Origin: a virus
Taxonomy: Duplodnaviria > Heunggongvirae > Uroviricota > Caudoviricetes
DNA length: 14,477 nt
Reading direction: 5' to 3' (one strand)
Virus record (IMG/VR): IMGVR_UViG_3300031555_004162
Span: 1 to 14,477 of that record
Both the position numbers and the translations under genes were made by a program. The notes below the pieces were generated by a model. The model was not told the origin of the DNA and did no database searches. It saw only the letters and a list, made by a program, of their open reading frames with translations. Each line of letters starts with the position of its first letter. The stretch's first letter is position 1. This document shows positions 2-14,176 of this stretch, piece by piece.

Positions 2-1717
2 TATATTGAAATTATCTCTAGTTAATTTATATCGAACATCCGTATAAGTTAATTTTTCATTATAATCTTCTGTTTTATCTTTAGCCCAAGTATTTTGAAT
101 ATGATCATCTTTCATAAAAGACCATTCTCGTTGTAATATATTTGTGCTGTCTAAAGTAGATAATTGAATAGCGTCATTATGCACTTCTGAAAATCCTATC
201 ATATTTGAATCTGAAACTTTATATCTATCTTTTTTTGTTAAAATAACATTTCCAGCATTATCTACAATATCTCCAAAAATATTTACATAGTATGGAGATG
301 GAGTTATTATATCACTATTTTCATTATCCTTTATCATTATATATTGTTTTTTTCCTATATGAGTACTATCGATAAATGGTCTTTTGGTTTTACTCATAGG
401 AACATCAAAACCTATATCGTCCATTACAAACATACGAGTGCTTTTATCTACATGCCAATTGTATTTAATATCTGTATAACAATCATACACTTTCCAAACA
501 TTTTTTACAATTCCATTTATGGTTATATCTTCATCAACTAATTTATATTTTTTACTATAGTCGTGTGAATCATAAATTGTCATATCATCATTGTTTAAAT
601 AAAATCCATTAAAAACATCATTATCTAATAATTTATAAGCTGTGTTTAAAATTTTAGCAGGTTGTGAAACATCAAAATATATACCTGTGTAATAGTGTTT
701 ATTAGTAACAATATCATGTGTATATATTCTTGCATTTTTAACATATTCTCCATTCCATTCACCGTTATCATGCAATATTTTTCCACTTATTGGTTCAATA
801 TATCTATTTAAATCATTACCATATTTATCATAAAATCTACCATCTGTAAGATAAATATTACTACTTTTCCATAAAACAGCACTTTCAGTCCCTTTATTTG
901 TTTCATATGACGTTACACTCGGCATAGCTACATATTGCTGTATACCTGAATCTTCAAAAAATCCCCAAGTTTTATCAGATACAATAGGTTTATTATCTAT
1001 AAATTTAGATTCTCCCCATATCCAATCTTCTAAATGTTTCCACTTATGTTTTTTTATTGCATATTCATCTATTAATACAGGCCAACTATTTTGAATAGTA
1101 ATAGGAATATTGTTAATTGATAATAATTTACCAGTAATATAATCATATTTAGCTAATTTAAATTCATCATTTAATACTATTGTTTCAGTAGAAGTTACAT
1201 CATATGATGGAATGTATTCGACTTTCATACCTGCAGGTCTAACTGCTTCAATCATGTCTTTCAAAATAGGTAAATATTCTTGTGTATATAAATATATTCT
1301 TAATTTAGTAATTTTTCTACCCCATGAATCATAATCACTATCATATTCCATGCTAAAATGATTTTCCAAATTTAATTCTTCCGGATTACCCATCAAACAA
1401 ATAGACATTGCAATCGCTAATGTAATTCCTAACTCATTTCCTCTATTTCTAACTAATAAAGGATATAATTTAACAATCCATCTATTCGTAAGTACTCTTT
1501 CTCTTGGATTATAATTATATCCTACATAATTCGCTAATAAAGGTAATAATCTTGATTTACATTTTAAAGGATCTAATAAATTAGGAATAAAATTATCTGT
1601 ATCAGATTTAATAACGGACAATGCGACATTTATCGCCCTTAAAAACACTTGAAATTCTCTATTATCGCCAAAATATTTAGGAACATACTCTCTAACATCT
1701 AACATTGATCTTGCCAA
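2..1717 (-). CDS. Baseplate wedge / phage tail protein I-like protein (P2 gpI family N-terminal domain, long C-terminal extension); 3' end lies beyond the window
   Basis: Hand-translated: open frame from TTG at 1717 (RBS AGGTGA 7 nt upstream; alternative ATG at 1705) to the window edge with no stop, at least 572 codons. N-terminus MARSMLDVREYVPKYF...NLLDPLKCKSRLLPLLANYVGYNY...RNRGNELGI...IEAVRPAGMKV fits the P2 gpI-type LDP-x-C...LP-x-LA...G and later RPAG pattern. Absent from the ORF track, presumably because it has no stop in the window. Confidence 0.8.
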   Translation of the reverse strand, partial: MARSMLDVREYVPKYFGDNREFQVFLRAINVALSVIKSDTDNFIPNLLDPLKCKSRLLPLLANYVGYNYNPRERVLTNRWIVKLYPLLVRNRGNELGITLAIAMSICLMGNPEELNLENHFSMEYDSDYDSWGRKITKLRIYLYTQEYLPILKDMIEAVRPAGMKVEYIPSYDVTSTETIVLNDEFKLAKYDYITGKLLSINNIPITIQNSWPVLIDEYAIKKHKWKHLEDWIWGESKFIDNKPIVSDKTWGFFEDSGIQQYVAMPSVTSYETNKGTESAVLWKSSNIYLTDGRFYDKYGNDLNRYIEPISGKILHDNGEWNGEYVKNARIYTHDIVTNKHYYTGIYFDVSQPAKILNTAYKLLDNDVFNGFYLNNDDMTIYDSHDYSKKYKLVDEDITINGIVKNVWKVYDCYTDIKYNWHVDKSTRMFVMDDIGFDVPMSKTKRPFIDSTHIGKKQYIMIKDNENSDIITPSPYYVNIFGDIVDNAGNVILTKKDRYKVSDSNMIGFSEVHNDAIQLSTLDSTNILQREWSFMKDDHIQNTWAKDKTEDYNEKLTYTDVRYKLTRDNFNI

Positions 1718-2144: not shown

Positions 2145-2606
2145 TTATTTTTTTAACACCCAAATATTACCAATACATCCATGACTGCTATCCCAATGAT
2201 CATATATAACCGCATTCATTATAGCTACTATATGATGTCCACCTATATGAGCAATAACATTATCTGTTTCATCTATACTTACACCGTTATCATAATTAAA
2301 AGTAGTTCCTTCTTGTAATTCTTTACAAAATTCCACGCCTGTATATTTAGTATTATCTATTTTTCTTGGTTGCTTACATTTTGTATATCCATATCTTGTT
2401 AATAATTTGTCAATTGCTTGTTTAGATGCACTATCATATCCGGTTTCACATTGCAACTTAGCCAAATCCATGACAACATCATTATACTTTTTACCTGTAA
2501 CCGTGCTTATTGCTCTTATTACACAATCACTGGTGATTCTGTTTTTAGGATTTGCATTATGCATTTTAAATACATTTGTGTTTGGATATTTATCCTGTCT
2601 TTTCAT
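2145..2606 (-). CDS. Putative papain-fold (C39-like) cysteine hydrolase
   Basis: NANPKNRITSDC28VIRAIS, GH124H125IVAI and YD136HWD139S give the Cys-His-Asp order of papain-like enzymes. RBS AAGGAG and a promoter lie directly upstream. Confidence 0.55.
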   Translation of the reverse strand: MKRQDKYPNTNVFKMHNANPKNRITSDCVIRAISTVTGKKYNDVVMDLAKLQCETGYDSASKQAIDKLLTRYGYTKCKQPRKIDNTKYTGVEFCKELQEGTTFNYDNGVSIDETDNVIAHIGGHHIVAIMNAVIYDHWDSSHGCIGNIWVLKK

Positions 2607-2760: not shown

Positions 2761-3264
2761 TTAATCTTCTATTTTATCTGCAAATTTTAATTCTTTATAA
2801 TAATCTACTGCACTTGTAAATGCAAGAAATTCTAAATCTCTATCATCGTTTACATATCGTTTAGGTTCTTGTAAAAAAACAACATCATTAGTGTAAACAT
2901 TAAAAAATTCCTCTTCTTCAGTAAGAATTACTTCAACTTGTTTGCCATTAAAAGAGTAACTAGCATCAAATACAACTACTTCTTTCAAAGTATCATCCCA
3001 ATCAGGATCAGTTGTTACATCTTCTTTAACAACTTCTTTAGTAGCATCAATTACCGGTTTTCCAGGTCTTTCATCATCTCTTGTAGCAATTTTAACATCT
3101 AATATTTCTGCATCAGGTTTATATGATTTAAAATACTCAGATACTTGTTCTTCAGAATATCCTTTAATCAAATTAGCTTGATGTACATTATTGTGTTTAA
3201 ATGAGATATTAAATGTTTTTGTTTCATTTTCTTTTATCATTTGTAAGCTTTCAAAAAGATTCAT
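2761..3264 (-). CDS. Leader-bearing acidic protein (167 aa), candidate virion internal protein
   Basis: Starts MNLFESLQMIKE|N; RBS GGAGG; possible internal site VVKE81|D. Confidence 0.8.
   Translation of the reverse strand: MNLFESLQMIKENETKTFNISFKHNNVHQANLIKGYSEEQVSEYFKSYKPDAEILDVKIATRDDERPGKPVIDATKEVVKEDVTTDPDWDDTLKEVVVFDASYSFNGKQVEVILTEEEEFFNVYTNDVVFLQEPKRYVNDDRDLEFLAFTSAVDYYKELKFADKIED
3229..3264 (-). repeat. N-terminal leader copy MNLFESLQMIKE
   Basis: ATG AAT CTT TTT GAA AGC TTA CAA ATG ATA AAA GAA. Confidence 0.9.
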
Positions 3265-3287: not shown

Positions 3288-3626
3288 TTAAAATCTATTT
3301 AAGAAATAATACATACATTGTTTTATTACTTCTTCATAGCTTTCATATGATTCTATATCATCAATGATAAGTTCACCTTTTGAATTAGGTTTATCACCAT
3401 GACATCTAACAATATATCCTTCAAACGCTTCATCATAATTAAATGTGAAATGAGCATATATATCATTATCAGGTTTAGGAAATCTAATAGTAAGAGAATT
3501 TTCTTTAATCTCTACCTGATAATTAAGCTCTATTAATCGTTTATAAGGCTTACTATCCATAATTACTTCTAATGCTTCATCATAATTGTTTTCTTTAATT
3601 ATTTGGAGATTTTCAAACAAATTCAT
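3288..3626 (-). CDS. Leader-bearing protein (112 aa), candidate virion internal protein
   Basis: Starts MNLFENLQIIKE|N; RBS GAGGTGA overlaps the upstream TGA stop. Confidence 0.8.
   Translation of the reverse strand: MNLFENLQIIKENNYDEALEVIMDSKPYKRLIELNYQVEIKENSLTIRFPKPDNDIYAHFTFNYDEAFEGYIVRCHGDKPNSKGELIIDDIESYESYEEVIKQCMYYFLNRF
3591..3626 (-). repeat. N-terminal leader copy MNLFENLQIIKE
   Basis: ATG AAT TTG TTT GAA AAT CTC CAA ATA ATT AAA GAA. Confidence 0.9.
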
Positions 3627-3639
3627 TATGTTTCACCTC

Positions 3640-6165
3640 TCAATCTTCAAATATTAATCGCCAATTATCAGTCTTGAATTTATTAAATATGTTTTCAATA
3701 CCATTTTTAATTTGAATATCTAATTCACAAGTTTCAGCATCAATAACAAGTACTCTAAAATAATCTTCAGCCCATTCATTAATGTATGGGTAAATAAGAA
3801 TATATGCACCTGATACTAAATAGATTTCACCATCAGCATTTAAATTTTTAGCATTGAATTCTGAAGGTTGCCAATTATAATCTTCTCCATCCATATCTAT
3901 TTGGTCTAAACTATCTAAATAATCTTTTAAAGCATTAAATAATTTTTCTCCAGTTGCATAATCTCTATCTTCAATTACATTATGATTTGATTCAGTTAAT
4001 GATTCATTTTTTATACCAAATAAATATGCAACTATTCTACCAGGACATTCTGGTTCAAAATAAGCATCTTTATCATGTTTAACAATAACTTTATTTAATT
4101 CATCACATAATTTAGAAATTGATTCATATCCTAATTCTGCACCGACAGCTACCATCACATAATCATCATTGATATCCGTACTTACCGATAAATAATCATC
4201 AGCTTCATCTTCTGGGAATCCAACAGATAACATGAATTTATGAGCAGCTTCTTTAACTTCTTTTTCTAGTGTATCTAAAAATGTAGCCGCATTATCATCA
4301 TAATCTTCATCATTAGATTCTGTTAATTCTTGATATAAATTAGTTACATCTATCAATATTTCATAATCATCGGGTACACAATAAATATCGCATTTAGGAA
4401 ATACTTTCTGTAAATCTTTTTTATAACTATTATAATCTGACTGGTCGGAATTAGAAGAAATAGGTATAGTCATAAATCGTTGTTGATTCTGTGTATAAAA
4501 TGAGCTAGAATATGCAGCATCTACAAGTGGACCATATTTAAATTCATCACAAATCTTTTTAATTAATTTTTTGTTCACAGATGAATCGTTATCATCATTA
4601 TTAGATTCTCTTAATTTTTTACCATTGCTATCAATTATATCTACATTATCGTAATTATCATTTGATATAATAAAATTACGAGGATTAATTTCTGGATGAT
4701 TATCTTTAATATATTTTTCAGCAATATTTAAAGCTGCTTCATCGTTATCAGTGCTAACTTTAATGTGTCCTTTATAATCTGAAATATCATCTCCATCATA
4801 TGTGTATTCTACCGAAATTATATTATTTGACTCTCTTTTAGGTAATAGCATATCACCTAAATCTTTTTGTAATTTCTTAATACCATCAAGTTTAATAGGT
4901 TCAAAACCTTGAACTTGGTCATAATTAATAGGAACAACTTCTTTTGTTTGTTGATGTTCAGCTGCCCATACGCCTTTACCATCTACTATTTTGCGATACA
5001 GACTCCAACCTTTATTATAACCAGTACCTGTTGAAATATATTCATACTCATCTAAATTTATATCAACGGTTTCCATAAGTGAATTATGCACATATTCAAT
5101 TACTGAAGACCATTCTTCAAATGATATTTTATCTTCAACTCTACCATAACTCATATCAGCAATTTCTTCATCATCATTGATACCAGGATATGCCGATTTT
5201 GTATCTTTTATTATTTCTTTTATTTTAGAAACACCACCAACTTTGTTAATTAAAGAATCTATGTCACTAATCGATTCTTTAATTATTTCCTCATGTTCTA
5301 TGTCAGCGTTAAAATAACGTAAAAACTCATTAACAAATTTATGAGAATAAGCTTTAATTAAATCCTTTGGAACTTTAATTTTTCTCATATCAATTTTTTC
5401 TTTATGAGTATGTTCATCTTCACTATATGAAACTGTTAATTCAAGTTCATTAATATCATCATCAAGGTAACAATCAACTACATTTGCAACTATATCACCA
5501 TGTGTAGCGTCTGATAATTTTTCTATAACATCATTAGAAAATTCATCTAAATCATCTCTGGTAAAATAAGCAGTATCAATTATATCAAATGCTCCTCCAT
5601 AATGTTTACCTTCATATAGTCCATCATTTAAATCTTGTTCTGCATTATCTATATCATGCCAGCTATTACCATCTTCTAAATCTTTTATTTTAACATTCAT
5701 AAAAGATTGTTGAGCTTTTCTTGCAGAAGCAATAGCATCTTTAAGATTAGAATGTTCAGAATAAACTTCTTCATTACTTATTGCTAATTGACATGTAACT
5801 TGATATCTTATGCTTTCAGTAGTAAACTTAAGAGATTTTACATCAGCTGTATATTCTTTAGGTTCAGCATTAAATATTACATCATATCTAGCACTAAATG
5901 TATCTTGATCTGATTCTCCAATTTCTTCACTATTAATAGAAATATCAATTCCTTTACTTGTAAAGAATTCATCTATTAAATGTTTCATATATAAATGTTC
6001 GTGTTTCCAATCTCCATCATATATTACTATTTGCATACCATCTTTTGTTTCACCTAATTCATTATAGATGTATTGCGCGTTTTTTGACGCTAAAAATTCT
6101 TTAAATTCATTAATTAATGGATTTTTTGATTCTTTCATCAATTGTAAATTTTCAAATAAATTCAT
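3640..6165 (-). CDS. Large acidic leader-bearing protein (841 aa), candidate modular polyprotein packaged in the head
   Basis: Start moved to ATG 6165: TAATG overlap with the upstream stop, RBS AAGGTGA, and it begins exactly with MNLFENLQLMKE|S. Recurrent internal x-x-E|S/T/G sites. Confidence 0.85.
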   Translation of the reverse strand: MNLFENLQLMKESKNPLINEFKEFLASKNAQYIYNELGETKDGMQIVIYDGDWKHEHLYMKHLIDEFFTSKGIDISINSEEIGESDQDTFSARYDVIFNAEPKEYTADVKSLKFTTESIRYQVTCQLAISNEEVYSEHSNLKDAIASARKAQQSFMNVKIKDLEDGNSWHDIDNAEQDLNDGLYEGKHYGGAFDIIDTAYFTRDDLDEFSNDVIEKLSDATHGDIVANVVDCYLDDDINELELTVSYSEDEHTHKEKIDMRKIKVPKDLIKAYSHKFVNEFLRYFNADIEHEEIIKESISDIDSLINKVGGVSKIKEIIKDTKSAYPGINDDEEIADMSYGRVEDKISFEEWSSVIEYVHNSLMETVDINLDEYEYISTGTGYNKGWSLYRKIVDGKGVWAAEHQQTKEVVPINYDQVQGFEPIKLDGIKKLQKDLGDMLLPKRESNNIISVEYTYDGDDISDYKGHIKVSTDNDEAALNIAEKYIKDNHPEINPRNFIISNDNYDNVDIIDSNGKKLRESNNDDNDSSVNKKLIKKICDEFKYGPLVDAAYSSSFYTQNQQRFMTIPISSNSDQSDYNSYKKDLQKVFPKCDIYCVPDDYEILIDVTNLYQELTESNDEDYDDNAATFLDTLEKEVKEAAHKFMLSVGFPEDEADDYLSVSTDINDDYVMVAVGAELGYESISKLCDELNKVIVKHDKDAYFEPECPGRIVAYLFGIKNESLTESNHNVIEDRDYATGEKLFNALKDYLDSLDQIDMDGEDYNWQPSEFNAKNLNADGEIYLVSGAYILIYPYINEWAEDYFRVLVIDAETCELDIQIKNGIENIFNKFKTDNWRLIFED
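6130..6165 (-). repeat. N-terminal leader copy MNLFENLQLMKE
   Basis: ATG AAT TTA TTT GAA AAT TTA CAA TTG ATG AAA GAA. Confidence 0.9.
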
Positions 6166-7103
6166 TACCAATCACCTTCTTCACTAAATTGATCTACATA
6201 CTCTTCTAGCCAATCATCTATTTTTTCATATACAATATCGTATTCATCTCTAGTTAAATCTTTAATAACTAATTGACCCCATTCTTGTTCAACGTTTCTA
6301 CAATAATCCCATGTTGAAATTTCATCTTCTAAATCATCTAATGAAATAATTTCATTATCTATAAGTCGTTGAATAGAATAATTAAGTTCTATGGTATAAT
6401 CATATAATTTTTCAAATTCTTTCCAAATTTCAGATGAGCAATCCAACATATCTTCTGTATTTTCTTCAATAAGAAGATTAGGATTATCTCTTATTGTATC
6501 TATAACTTCATCAGCAAGTTCATTTAAAAAATTAGTATAATCTTTTTCAAACTGTTCATCATCAAAGAAAATATCAGGATCTCTATGTTCATCTGCAAAA
6601 GCTATAAGTGAATCAAATCCATTATCTGCCAAATAAGTCGCAGCTGGACCACACGATTCAATACCATAACCTGAAAAATAAATGTCTCCATCGTTATAAT
6701 CTCTATATAAAAGCCTCATTATTGCTCTTATAAGTTCACCTGCTTTTGTATCAGCTTTACCATTCGCAGGCACTAGATTATTAAAGAATGCATTAACATC
6801 TCCGCCTTCTGCATCAATTTTAGATTGAATATTTTTTGTAAGCTTATTATTTTTATTTTGTTCAAACCAATTTTTAATTTTACCTATTATATCTGTAACG
6901 CCTTCTGTTTTTACAAGCTTATCATCATCAAATCCATTGTATTGATCATCAAATACGTCTTCATCCCATTCATTGTTTTCTTCGGGCTCATCTGGATCAT
7001 AGTATGTTCCAAAAGGTTTGCCAGTGCGAGTATCTATACCAAGTTCATTATACTCTGATTCATTGTTTTCTTTAAACAGTTGTAAATTTTCAAAAAGATT
7101 CAT
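6165..7103 (-). CDS. Leader-bearing acidic protein (312 aa), candidate virion internal protein
   Basis: Starts MNLFENLQLFKE|N; very D/E-rich N-terminal part; globular-looking core GKADTKAGELIRAIMRLLYRDYNDGD...GYGIESCGPAATYL that I cannot assign. Confidence 0.85.
   Translation of the reverse strand: MNLFENLQLFKENNESEYNELGIDTRTGKPFGTYYDPDEPEENNEWDEDVFDDQYNGFDDDKLVKTEGVTDIIGKIKNWFEQNKNNKLTKNIQSKIDAEGGDVNAFFNNLVPANGKADTKAGELIRAIMRLLYRDYNDGDIYFSGYGIESCGPAATYLADNGFDSLIAFADEHRDPDIFFDDEQFEKDYTNFLNELADEVIDTIRDNPNLLIEENTEDMLDCSSEIWKEFEKLYDYTIELNYSIQRLIDNEIISLDDLEDEISTWDYCRNVEQEWGQLVIKDLTRDEYDIVYEKIDDWLEEYVDQFSEEGDW
7068..7103 (-). repeat. N-terminal leader copy MNLFENLQLFKE
   Basis: ATG AAT CTT TTT GAA AAT TTA CAA CTG TTT AAA GAA. 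Confidence 0.9.
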
Positions 7104-13076: not shown

Positions 13077-13436
13077 ATGATTAGAATATTAGAAGATTTA
13101 CAAATAATAAAAGAAACTAATGCAACTGTTGATAAAGCTATTGAAAAAACATACGATTCTATAGATAAAGAATTAAACAGTTTAAAAGGTGATAAAGCAA
13201 TAATTCATGGCGAAGATAATCAAAATAATATCGCAAATACATATTTATTAAGAATTGAAAAAATAACTAAAAATAAAAAATATGTACATGAATATTTATT
13301 AGATACAACAATTTCCGAAGGATTAGAACAATGGTTGAATAAAATTAATAATGCAGGTTATATAAGTGCATTATTTAAAATTATAGATAAAATGAATGAA
13401 TTAGGTATTATTAAAAACATTCATAATGAAAAATAA
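13077..13436 (+). CDS. Variant-leader protein (119 aa); only plus-strand gene
   Basis: RBS GAGGTGA; starts MIRILEDLQIIKE|T; own promoter-like region and terminator. Confidence 0.8.
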   Translation: MIRILEDLQIIKETNATVDKAIEKTYDSIDKELNSLKGDKAIIHGEDNQNNIANTYLLRIEKITKNKKYVHEYLLDTTISEGLEQWLNKINNAGYISALFKIIDKMNELGIIKNIHNEK

Positions 13437-13489: not shown

Positions 13490-13792
13490 TTAAATATTAT
13501 ACAAATCGATGCTTACATTATTTACGATTCTAATGTCATTATAAAACTCACCATTTTCAGTATTTTCTATATCTCTATAATCAATTTCTTCAATAAAATC
13601 AGAATAATCGAAATATTCTAATGTTTCTCCATCTTTTGTTTCATCTAATTGTTTAGCACATGCAATTGCTTCATCTACATTGTCAAATATAATTATTCCA
13701 TGAATCGCTGTATGCATATTTCTAAAGTTAATACCATATTTTTGATTATTTTCTGATTCTTTAAGTGTTTGTAAATTTTCAAATAAATTCAT
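13490..13792 (-). CDS. Leader-bearing acidic protein (100 aa), candidate virion internal protein
   Basis: Starts MNLFENLQTLKE|S; RBS GAGGTGA. Confidence 0.8.
   Translation of the reverse strand: MNLFENLQTLKESENNQKYGINFRNMHTAIHGIIIFDNVDEAIACAKQLDETKDGETLEYFDYSDFIEEIDYRDIENTENGEFYNDIRIVNNVSIDLYNI
13757..13792 (-). repeat. N-terminal leader copy MNLFENLQTLKE
   Basis: ATG AAT TTA TTT GAA AAT TTA CAA ACA CTT AAA GAA. Confidence 0.9.
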
Positions 13793-13843: not shown

Positions 13844-14176
13844 TTAAACGGTCTTTCTCATTGTAGTCCCCCAACCTCTTCCATTATAGAATCTATGAGG
13901 GCTGTTGTTATGTATATTTGCATGAATGAATTTAGATACAATTTCCATCTTATCTTCTGCAACTTTTGATTTCTTAACTTTGTTAACAATAGCTTCATAT
14001 GGATTATTAACATAACCACAAGAGCTACAATCTCTCATCAAGTCTTGAAGTATTGAAGAATCTTCATCAATTAGTTCGGCAAATTCTTTAACTGTATAGT
14101 TTGTAAGGTCTAACTTTTTGTCTTCTATTTCATTAGCTTCTCTCATCATTTGTAAATTTTCAAATAAATTCATCAT
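13844..14176 (-). CDS. Leader-bearing protein (109-110 aa), candidate virion internal protein
   Basis: (M)MNLFENLQMMRE|A; tandem ATGs at 14176 and 14173; RBS GAGGT. Confidence 0.8.
   Translation of the reverse strand: MMNLFENLQMMREANEIEDKKLDLTNYTVKEFAELIDEDSSILQDLMRDCSSCGYVNNPYEAIVNKVKKSKVAEDKMEIVSKFIHANIHNNSPHRFYNGRGWGTTMRKTV
14138..14173 (-). repeat. N-terminal leader copy MNLFENLQMMRE
   Basis: ATG AAT TTA TTT GAA AAT TTA CAA ATG ATG AGA GAA. Confidence 0.9.

Follow-up and report, generated by a model that had tools for sequence, protein, structure and literature searches.

The minus strand of the viral DNA considered here raises the question of why a single gene should encode a long string of small, mutually unrelated domains behind a short N-terminal leader, with motifs resembling the end of that leader recurring between them. 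The stretch analyzed (hereafter, the window) comprises the first 14,477 nucleotides (nt) of a 78,477-nt linear IMG/VR virus record (IMGVR_UViG_3300031555_004162; CheckV completeness ~37%, G+C ~25%), and nearly all of its genes lie on the minus strand. A first-pass annotation had read the 841-amino-acid (aa) product of one of these genes as a polyprotein, in which one leader imports a string of unrelated domains that the head protease releases. The comparisons described here point to a capsid-targeted cargo polyprotein that is probably cut by the prohead protease, a reading that is assigned a probability of roughly 0.7 on the basis of sequence relationships and analogy to characterized phages. 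The part of the proposal concerning a leader followed by interchangeable domains at protease-type joints was borne out by module shuffling among relatives, by the covariation of leader, joint and capsid propeptide, and by the presence of a Peptidase S77 gene beside an orthologue. The modularity and the protease-type nature of the joints are strongly supported by these sequence comparisons, and cleavage is indirectly supported.

The reading frame 3640..6171(-) is open for 843 codons, counted from a TTG at 6171. Because every homologue begins MNLFENLQ, the true start was assigned to the ATG listed in the table below, and residue numbers counted from it (841-aa numbering) are lower by 2 than those counted from the TTG (843-aa numbering). 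In the sequence TAATG (window 6163-6170), the initiating ATG and the TAA that ends the upstream 312-aa leader gene overlap, and the purine-rich stretch GAAGAAGGTGA precedes them. This arrangement suggests translational coupling of consecutive leader genes, and the polyprotein is probably coupled to the preceding 312-aa gene.

All nine Glu sites were found at the codons that had been claimed (6130, 5815, 5611, 5275, 5071, 4831, 4606, 4318, and 3991), and cuts at these positions would separate a 12-aa leader from nine modules, named A to I, that are 68-116 aa long. The modules have masses of 7.6-13.7 kDa and are all acidic, with isoelectric points (pI) of 4.1-5.3. As had been stated, they do not resemble each other (best pairwise blastp E-value 0.15), and the tripeptide ESN occurs four times and LTESN twice. 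Approximately 0.4 ESN would be expected by chance from the composition of the protein (Poisson P ~1e-3 for four). The ES dipeptides at residues 86 and 683, which had been rated as poorer candidates, fall inside confidently folded parts of the predicted structure, and the ES at residue 723 constitutes a second site 4 residues ahead of 727, in the same linker. Neither Pfam nor PHROG gave a family match to the polyprotein (E<=0.1 or 0.01), family searches returned no peptidase match, and tblastn against 50,697 deposited phages gave no match to it.

The leader is not confined to this gene. Eleven open reading frames (ORFs) of the 78-kb record, six of them within the window, start with MNLFENLQxx(K/R/N)E or a close variant, and the bodies behind the shared leader are unrelated. 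The leader ends in M-K-E↓S in the polyprotein (the arrow marks the putative cut), and in I/M/F/L-x-E↓(S/N/A/T/V/E) in the other leaders and homologues.

A word-indexed search for relatives of the polyprotein retrieved 36 near-length and 44 shorter relatives, and an exhaustive phmmer search of 1.84 billion representatives retrieved 660 proteins of 73-1530 aa at E<=1e-3. Separate searches with each module bore out the expectation that modules recur whole, shuffled in set and order, or stand alone behind the leader; each aligns from its first to its last residue in relatives (e.g., 1-112 of 112). The module orders observed include A-B-D-E-F-H-I (P0004), A-B-C-E-H-I (P0005), A-B-C-G-H-I (P0006), A-B-C-G-I (P0012), E then C (P0030), and H, B, A (P0033). 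Chains of the closest clade nearly always begin with A and end with I, and in relatives additional module families, again ending in Glu↓Ser, occupy the gaps. No colinear homologue lacking the Glu sites was found among the relatives searched. Searches of IMG/VR with module I, both from one sequence and from an alignment, returned nothing.

Several of these relatives carry a single module directly behind the leader. P0066 and P0130 consist of leader and module I, and P0165 of leader and module C; in P0052 and P0059, which begin MKIKIE↓AASYGG, module C follows straight after a six-residue leader. P0168 is also among the proteins in which a leader end replaces the joint before a module. Conversely, the stand-alone leader protein at 13844-14176 of the window recurs in another phage as a fused module of P0070, after module A and the joint RVKE↓SN. 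Judged from these sequences, a leader end can replace a joint: the same module may come directly after a leader or, in a different phage, after a joint. Two 237-aa proteins from other contigs, P0054 and P0055, retain the leader and only the tail of module C (..STEHEEMIKE↓S), followed by G and I. By its sequence, this looks like the trace of cassette remodelling, in which a deletion removed what lay between the leader and the last residues of module C.

The positions of the joints were also derived without reference to the Glu sites, from a histogram of the ends of ungapped high-scoring segment pairs between the polyprotein and 79 relatives. Peaks were obtained at residues 117, 185, 301, 368, 450, 515/528, 619, and 723, which lie 1-7 residues from the sites listed by the first-pass annotation (119, 187, 299, 367, 447, 522, 618, and 727); lesser peaks correspond to insertions and deletions inside modules. 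Nine of the 13 non-leader Glu-Ser/Thr/Gly dipeptides were located no more than 5 residues from the eight breakpoints (binomial P = 7e-7), a placement that is far from random at the sequence level.

The joint motif in relatives, with whichever modules as neighbours, is x-x-Glu followed by Ser, Thr, Ala, Gly, or Asp, as in LPKRE↓S, MIKE↓S, LTE↓SN, K(V/L/I)EE↓(S/T)NH, and FTTE↓(S/D/A). Counting backwards from the putative cut, P3 is mostly Leu, Ile, Met, or Val, matching the leader ends (M/I/F/L-x-E). The Ser codons vary among the joints (TCA, AGC, TCG, and TCT), indicating that the joint is conserved as protein and not as a DNA recombination signal.

An AlphaFold2 model of the polyprotein, built on an alignment of 32 whole homologues, had a mean predicted local distance difference test score (pLDDT) of 69 and a predicted template modelling score (pTM) of 0.25. 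It shows no single continuous fold: small alpha/beta domains are modelled confidently, and their mutual arrangement is not fixed. The prediction that the joints should lie in low-confidence linkers held for six of the eight internal Glu residues, which fall in segments of pLDDT<50 (117, 185, 365, 445, 520, and 725; 841-aa numbering), and the Glu at residue 616 ends a helix 3 residues before such a segment; the joint between C and D departs from it and is considered below. Modules B and D were poorly modelled throughout. Module C alone, modelled from 68 diverse sequences, gave an alpha-beta-beta-beta-alpha fold with a pLDDT of 86 and a pTM of 0.78. Searches of the PDB and AlphaFold DB clusters with the full model and with module C, and of the ESM Atlas with module H, returned no significant or function-telling match. 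The best fold match, a topology like that of the double-stranded RNA-binding domain (alpha-beta3-alpha; E ~0.1), was not taken as membership in that family. The N-terminus of module C carries the motif YGGA(F/Y)D (window 5590-5610 (-)), directly after the joint, which is invariant in the 68 module-C sequences, yet predicted to be disordered (pLDDT 44). The motif may be a linear binding motif or the primed-side part of the protease site.

The YGGA(F/Y)D motif provided an anchor with which joints and leaders could be compared, and the residues preceding it were listed in 99 occurrences. Two classes were observed. In one, N-termini that end in hydrophobic-x-Glu (MNLFENLQxxKE, MKINKLLE, MTKVNIRE, MKFKLINE, and MILKE) occur with joints such as NLNE↓AS, SLKE↓AS, and KLTE↓AH. 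In the other, basic leaders (MKRVIRGS, MKISKKxITAS, and MKIIKSSK) occur with joints such as VES↓AS, IKS↓AS, VEA↓RS, and VNA↓AD. Glu-type leaders were associated with Glu joints in 42 cases versus 2, and basic MK(I/R)-type leaders with hydrophobic-x-Ser/Ala/Gly joints in 29 versus 2 (Fisher P = 4e-16, a value inflated by shared ancestry); collapsing the table to 16 sequence clusters gave 7/0/0/3 and P = 0.008.

The same division extends to the capsid. A search of IMG/VR with module C identified 17 loci, and a Peptidase_S77 match was present in eight of the 17 records, including five of the seven complete ones. All eight S77 genomes encode the major head protein (PHROG 138) next after the protease (PHROG 207, head maturation protease), and in each of them the N-terminal propeptide of this capsid protein belongs to the motif class seen in that genome's cargo leaders and joints. 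The propeptides of the Glu-type genomes read MAKNLLE↓S..FMNE↓A (G001), MNLLE↓S..KFMNE↓A (G002), and MAQNLME↓A..FLGE↓A (G011), and those of the Ser/Ala/Gly-type genomes MITKTRKG..PVTAS↓A..RIFAS↓L (G006), ..PIMAS↓R..SIMAS↓L (G013), ..PVMAS↓S..ITAG↓V (G014), ..PIQAS↓S..PVMSS↓M (G016), and ..KITAS↓R..PITAG↓T (G017). Capsid propeptides are an established substrate class of gp21-type proteases. The three-way agreement suggests that one lineage-specific factor, the head protease, reads leader ends, joints and propeptide, and is otherwise hard to explain. The Ser/Ala class is similar to the sites of herpesvirus assemblin, a protease with the fold of the S77 enzymes that prefers V/L-x-Ala↓Ser. When the S77 domains of G001, G002, G006, G011, G013, G014, G016, G017, and G018 (L011, L036-L042, L049) were aligned, one block read T-R-N-G-R-(K/R)-Y in all four Glu-type proteases and T-N-(K/L)-N-G-L-D-I in all five Ser/Ala-type ones. 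The two arginines of the Glu-type block are candidates for binding of the P1 Glu, in a split that is confounded by phylogeny.

The complete 115.8-kb genome G001 also contains, between an adaptor gene and the module-C protein, a gene for a 1014-aa protein (L011:6343-9387 (+)) that starts MSYLTE↓A and carries the doubled joints IKE↓SLNE↓AT, VKE↓SFNE↓AT, and FDE↓SLKE↓S. From its sequence, it looks like another cargo polyprotein.

A physical link between polyprotein and protease was found for the orthologue P0039, which is 447 aa long, shares the leader, and has counterparts of modules A, C, G, and I (56-82% identity). Two independent contigs, an ENA contig of 24,126 nt and a second one of 11,151 nt, each carry this orthologue together with an S77 protease gene (P0276, PF03420). 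P0039 is located 3.4 kb upstream of the protease on the same strand, with five further leader genes around. The 11,151-nt contig encodes, in order, a 98-aa protein without leader, a 119-aa leader protein, P0039, a 257-aa leader protein, a 174-aa protein with the variant leader MIKIIE↓S (L055:3184-3708 (+)), a 190-aa leader protein, a 227-aa protein, a 91-aa leader protein, the S77 protease, and a Gp23-family capsid protein (PF07068) whose N-terminal region contains KLAEITE↓S and LLKYTE↓A; past two small ORFs lies the gene for a T4 gp13-like neck protein. The 174-aa protein has a precomputed Pfam match to RNA_pol_A_CTD, and by this sequence match it may be a capsid-loaded mimic of the C-terminal domain of the RNA polymerase alpha subunit. 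The exact 23-nt leader DNA of the window is also present in the IMG/VR records G018 and G020, in which the gene for a 279-aa leader protein directly precedes that for an S77 protease with a long coiled coil fused to it; the capsid gene comes next. A search of G018 for homologues of the polyprotein and of the baseplate-like ORF of the window found none, so that its kinship to the window phage rests on the leader alone.

These observations suggest the following scheme. The leader, like the T4 capsid-targeting sequence (PMC3012670), would bring the whole chain into the prohead core, where a head-maturation protease of the T4 gp21 type (Peptidase S77) would cut after each junction Glu. The cuts would remove the leader and free nine proteins in equal amounts inside the head. 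A single address tag could in this way load many cargoes, and recombination at the joints would add, drop or swap them. More speculatively, and at somewhat less than even odds, the released pieces could remain inside the head and reach the host together with the DNA, to act early in infection, for instance as defence inhibitors like T4 IPI. The acidity of the modules argues against DNA-binding roles like those of the basic T4 internal proteins, and fits, as speculation, mobile cargo or mimic-type inhibitors.

Several points weigh against this interpretation. The 78-kb record, which represents ~37% of the genome, contains no S77/S78 protease (PF03420, PF04586) and no capsid or head genes, so the link to the protease rests on relatives. 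At three junction types P3 is not hydrophobic: Thr in FTTE, and Lys in PKRE and VKDE. The Glu of the C/D joint (residue 297) was modelled within a helix of modest confidence (block means 56-58). Shared ancestry confounds the covariation statistics, and second anchors in modules H and E showed the same trend more weakly, a signal that is noisy because the starts of the hidden Markov models are not sharp. An acidic cargo is unlike the largely basic T4 internal proteins, and the modules, the 68 module-C sequences included, have no Pfam, PHROG, or significant fold match. The helical C/D joint, together with the facts that linkers of shuffled domains are often conserved within a clade and that the closest relatives string their modules behind A and before I, would suit a multidomain internal or structural protein that is left uncleaved or merely trimmed of its leader, with x-x-Glu↓Ser joints serving as flexible linkers or preferred recombination joints. 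Such a protein is nevertheless judged quite unlikely, since the identity of joint and leader end would go unexplained, as would the switch from Glu to Ser/Ala/Gly joints exactly where leaders and capsid propeptides switch, and the retention of P3, P1, and P1′ in a motif that is degenerate at the DNA level. The simpler suspicion, that a protein rich in Glu and Ser contains these Glu-Ser dipeptides by chance, draws on its 79 Glu residues and ~25 hydrophobic-x-Glu tripeptides; it is refuted for practical purposes by the match of the sites to the independently derived homology breakpoints and by their retention across dozens of relatives.

A further possibility accepts the cuts and questions the fate of the products, which might be scaffold, core filler or other capsid-internal structural material that is expelled, degraded or retained, and not effectors delivered to the host. 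The T4 core proteins gp22, gp67, and gp68 are likewise cut at many hydrophobic-x-Glu sites, which counts in favour of this possibility, as does the lack of a recognizable enzymatic or inhibitor fold in the modules. In SPN3US, moreover, long propeptides undergo several cuts and for the most part exit the head (PMC10052503). The products predicted here would be folded 8-14-kDa domains rather than short peptides, and as modelled they would be unlikely to escape from a closed shell. Their extreme shuffling and presence/absence variation are typical of arms-race cargo like the T-even internal proteins (PMC3012670), not of essential scaffolds. A role as filler is therefore considered unlikely, and a capsid-targeted cargo polyprotein cut by the prohead protease remains the preferred reading.

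The features of the polyprotein and of its neighbourhood are listed in the table.

Features of the window (positions on the 14,477-nt stretch; the arrow marks the putative cut)
Feature	Coordinates	Strand	Length (aa)	pI	End	Remarks
Polyprotein gene	3640..6165	(-)	841			ATG 6165-6163, stop 3642-3640
Leader MNLFENLQLMKE	6130..6165	(-)	12		hydrophobic-x-Glu↓Ser	candidate capsid-targeting sequence; heads 11 otherwise unrelated ORFs
Module A	5815..6129	(-)	105	4.6	FTTE↓S	nearly always first in relatives
Module B	5611..5814	(-)	68	4.5	GLYE↓G	poorly modelled
Module C	5275..5610	(-)	112	4.6	IIKE↓S	most widespread; alpha-beta3-alpha fold (predicted)
Module D	5071..5274	(-)	68	4.4	SLME↓T	rare in relatives (4 hits)
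Module E	4831..5070	(-)	80	5.3	LLPKRE↓SN	
Module F	4606..4830	(-)	75	4.5	KLRE↓SN	
Module G	4318..4605	(-)	96	4.5	ELTE↓SN	
Module H	3991..4317	(-)	109	4.1	NE↓SLTE↓SN	double site
Module I	3643..3990	(-)	116	4.1		nearly always last; also alone behind leader (P0066, P0130)
Leader protein (MNLFENLQLFKE↓N)	6165..7103	(-)	312			upstream of polyprotein
Stand-alone leader protein	3288..3626	(-)	112			downstream of polyprotein; syntenic in relatives L009, L050
Stand-alone leader protein (MNLFESLQMIKE↓N)	2761..3264	(-)	167			
Stand-alone leader protein	13490..13792	(-)	100			
Stand-alone leader protein	13844..14176	(-)	110			fused module in P0070 of another phage, 67% identity
ORF with variant leader MIRILEDLQIIKE↓T	13077..13436	(+)	119			sole plus-strand leader-type ORF
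ORF without leader	2145-2606	(-)	153			between leader genes and structural ORF
Baseplate-like ORF	2-1717	(-)	572			runs off contig start

Short leaders of the MI(K/R/E)(I/L)LE type, like MIRILEDLQIIKE of the 119-aa ORF, also precede module I elsewhere (P0066, P0068, and P0069). The 153-aa ORF matches PHROG 3754 (E = 5e-14), a family to which PHROG assigns no function. The 572-aa ORF at the start of the window had no match in Pfam, PHROG, or the 50,697 deposited phages (tblastn); its N-terminal region may resemble P2 gpI-type baseplate proteins. In a syntenic relative, a 717-aa counterpart of this ORF is followed by genes for Big_2 (1296 aa), YDG (1215 aa), and 3509-aa proteins, suggesting that the 572-aa ORF probably opens a tail or baseplate module. 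A gene order matching that of the window, with UvrB, small genes, the polyprotein and then large structural genes, occurs in a relative other than the one that encodes P0039.

If the joints are cut, a tailed phage would be applying a polyprotein strategy to accessory cargo, obtaining many proteins at a fixed ratio from one gene and one tag, in a cassette that is rebuilt by recombination at the joints. The fast diversification of capsid cargo would then be explained, the combination of leader and joint motif would provide a sequence rule for predicting packaged proteins in metagenomic phages, and hundreds of small module families would become candidate injected defence inhibitors. The covariation of motif class with lineage offers a natural experiment on the specificity of proteases of the gp21/assemblin fold, and engineered T4-type capsids might be loaded with several foreign proteins on the same principle. 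A more general proposal is put forward tentatively, as the less probable outcome: that phages of gut Firmicutes with T4-like heads own a plug-and-play cargo system, in which small proteins tagged by leader or joint are loaded, released by S77 and delivered with the DNA, and in which the motifs of leader, joint and capsid propeptide evolve together with the specificity of the protease, forming at least two classes (cuts after Glu or after Ser/Ala/Gly). Were this true, hundreds of shuffled acidic modules would constitute a large uncharted reservoir of pre-made anti-defence or host-takeover proteins.

Among known systems, the T4 internal proteins and Alt are the closest family in mechanism, and the polyvalent proteins the closest in architecture. 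T4 gp21 cuts at hydrophobic-x-Glu, and the leaders of the T4 internal proteins, like those described here, end in this motif. In T4, the prohead protease gp21 removes the short N-terminal targeting leader that IPI, IPII, IPIII, and Alt share (PMC3012670); this leader is common to otherwise unrelated, hypervariable proteins, and the same holds for the leader proteins of this record. Further common features are an S77 protease and a gp23-type capsid gene, found here in relatives, and the location of leader genes in or beside late structural gene clusters. The two systems differ in that T4 has one cargo per leader, whereas up to nine or more cargoes per leader occur here, with a cleavage motif at every joint. 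Sequence similarity to T4 proteins is also absent, all modules are acidic, and the 12-residue leader has a different sequence.

The polyvalent proteins likewise combine many unrelated domains in one phage polypeptide and are extensively shuffled, and their delivery with the DNA and the proteolytic release of their domains have been proposed (Iyer et al. 2017, PMC5512222). Their domains are recognizable as enzymatic or DNA-binding, and self-processing through an embedded metallopeptidase was suggested for them (PMC5512222). In contrast, the polyprotein described here has no MuF, MPTase, ParB, ART, methylase, helicase, or other Pfam/PHROG domain and no embedded peptidase match, and it carries regular inter-module sites that match those of a head-maturation protease, together with an N-terminal targeting leader. 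Cutting of head-internal proteins after Glu by a gp21-related prohead protease, sometimes at several sites per protein, is a feature that the polyprotein would share with the inner-body and ejection proteins of phiKZ-like giant phages (phiKZ gp175 and SPN3US gp245 substrates; PMC10052503, PMC5694885). The phiKZ-like motif has a small P3 residue (Ala/Ser/Gly-x-Glu), whereas the joints of the polyprotein have Leu/Ile/Met/Val or Lys/Thr at P3 (PMC10052503 for the phiKZ-like motif). Multiple cuts in the phiKZ-like proteins destroy long N-terminal propeptides to leave one mature C-terminal product, while the leader here comprises 12 aa; interchangeable module strings are not described for these phages.

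The polyproteins of picornaviruses and retroviral Gag-Pol offer an analogy only, in that one product is divided by the virus's own protease at short motifs to give a fixed stoichiometry. They belong to unrelated viruses with unrelated proteases and purposes, and the present case would concern the accessory cargo of a double-stranded DNA tailed phage. In a literature search that was not exhaustive, no description was found of interchangeable module strings punctuated by prohead-protease sites. To the systems compared above, this case adds phages of gut Firmicutes, small acidic modules, and a two-class covariation of cargo motifs with capsid propeptides.

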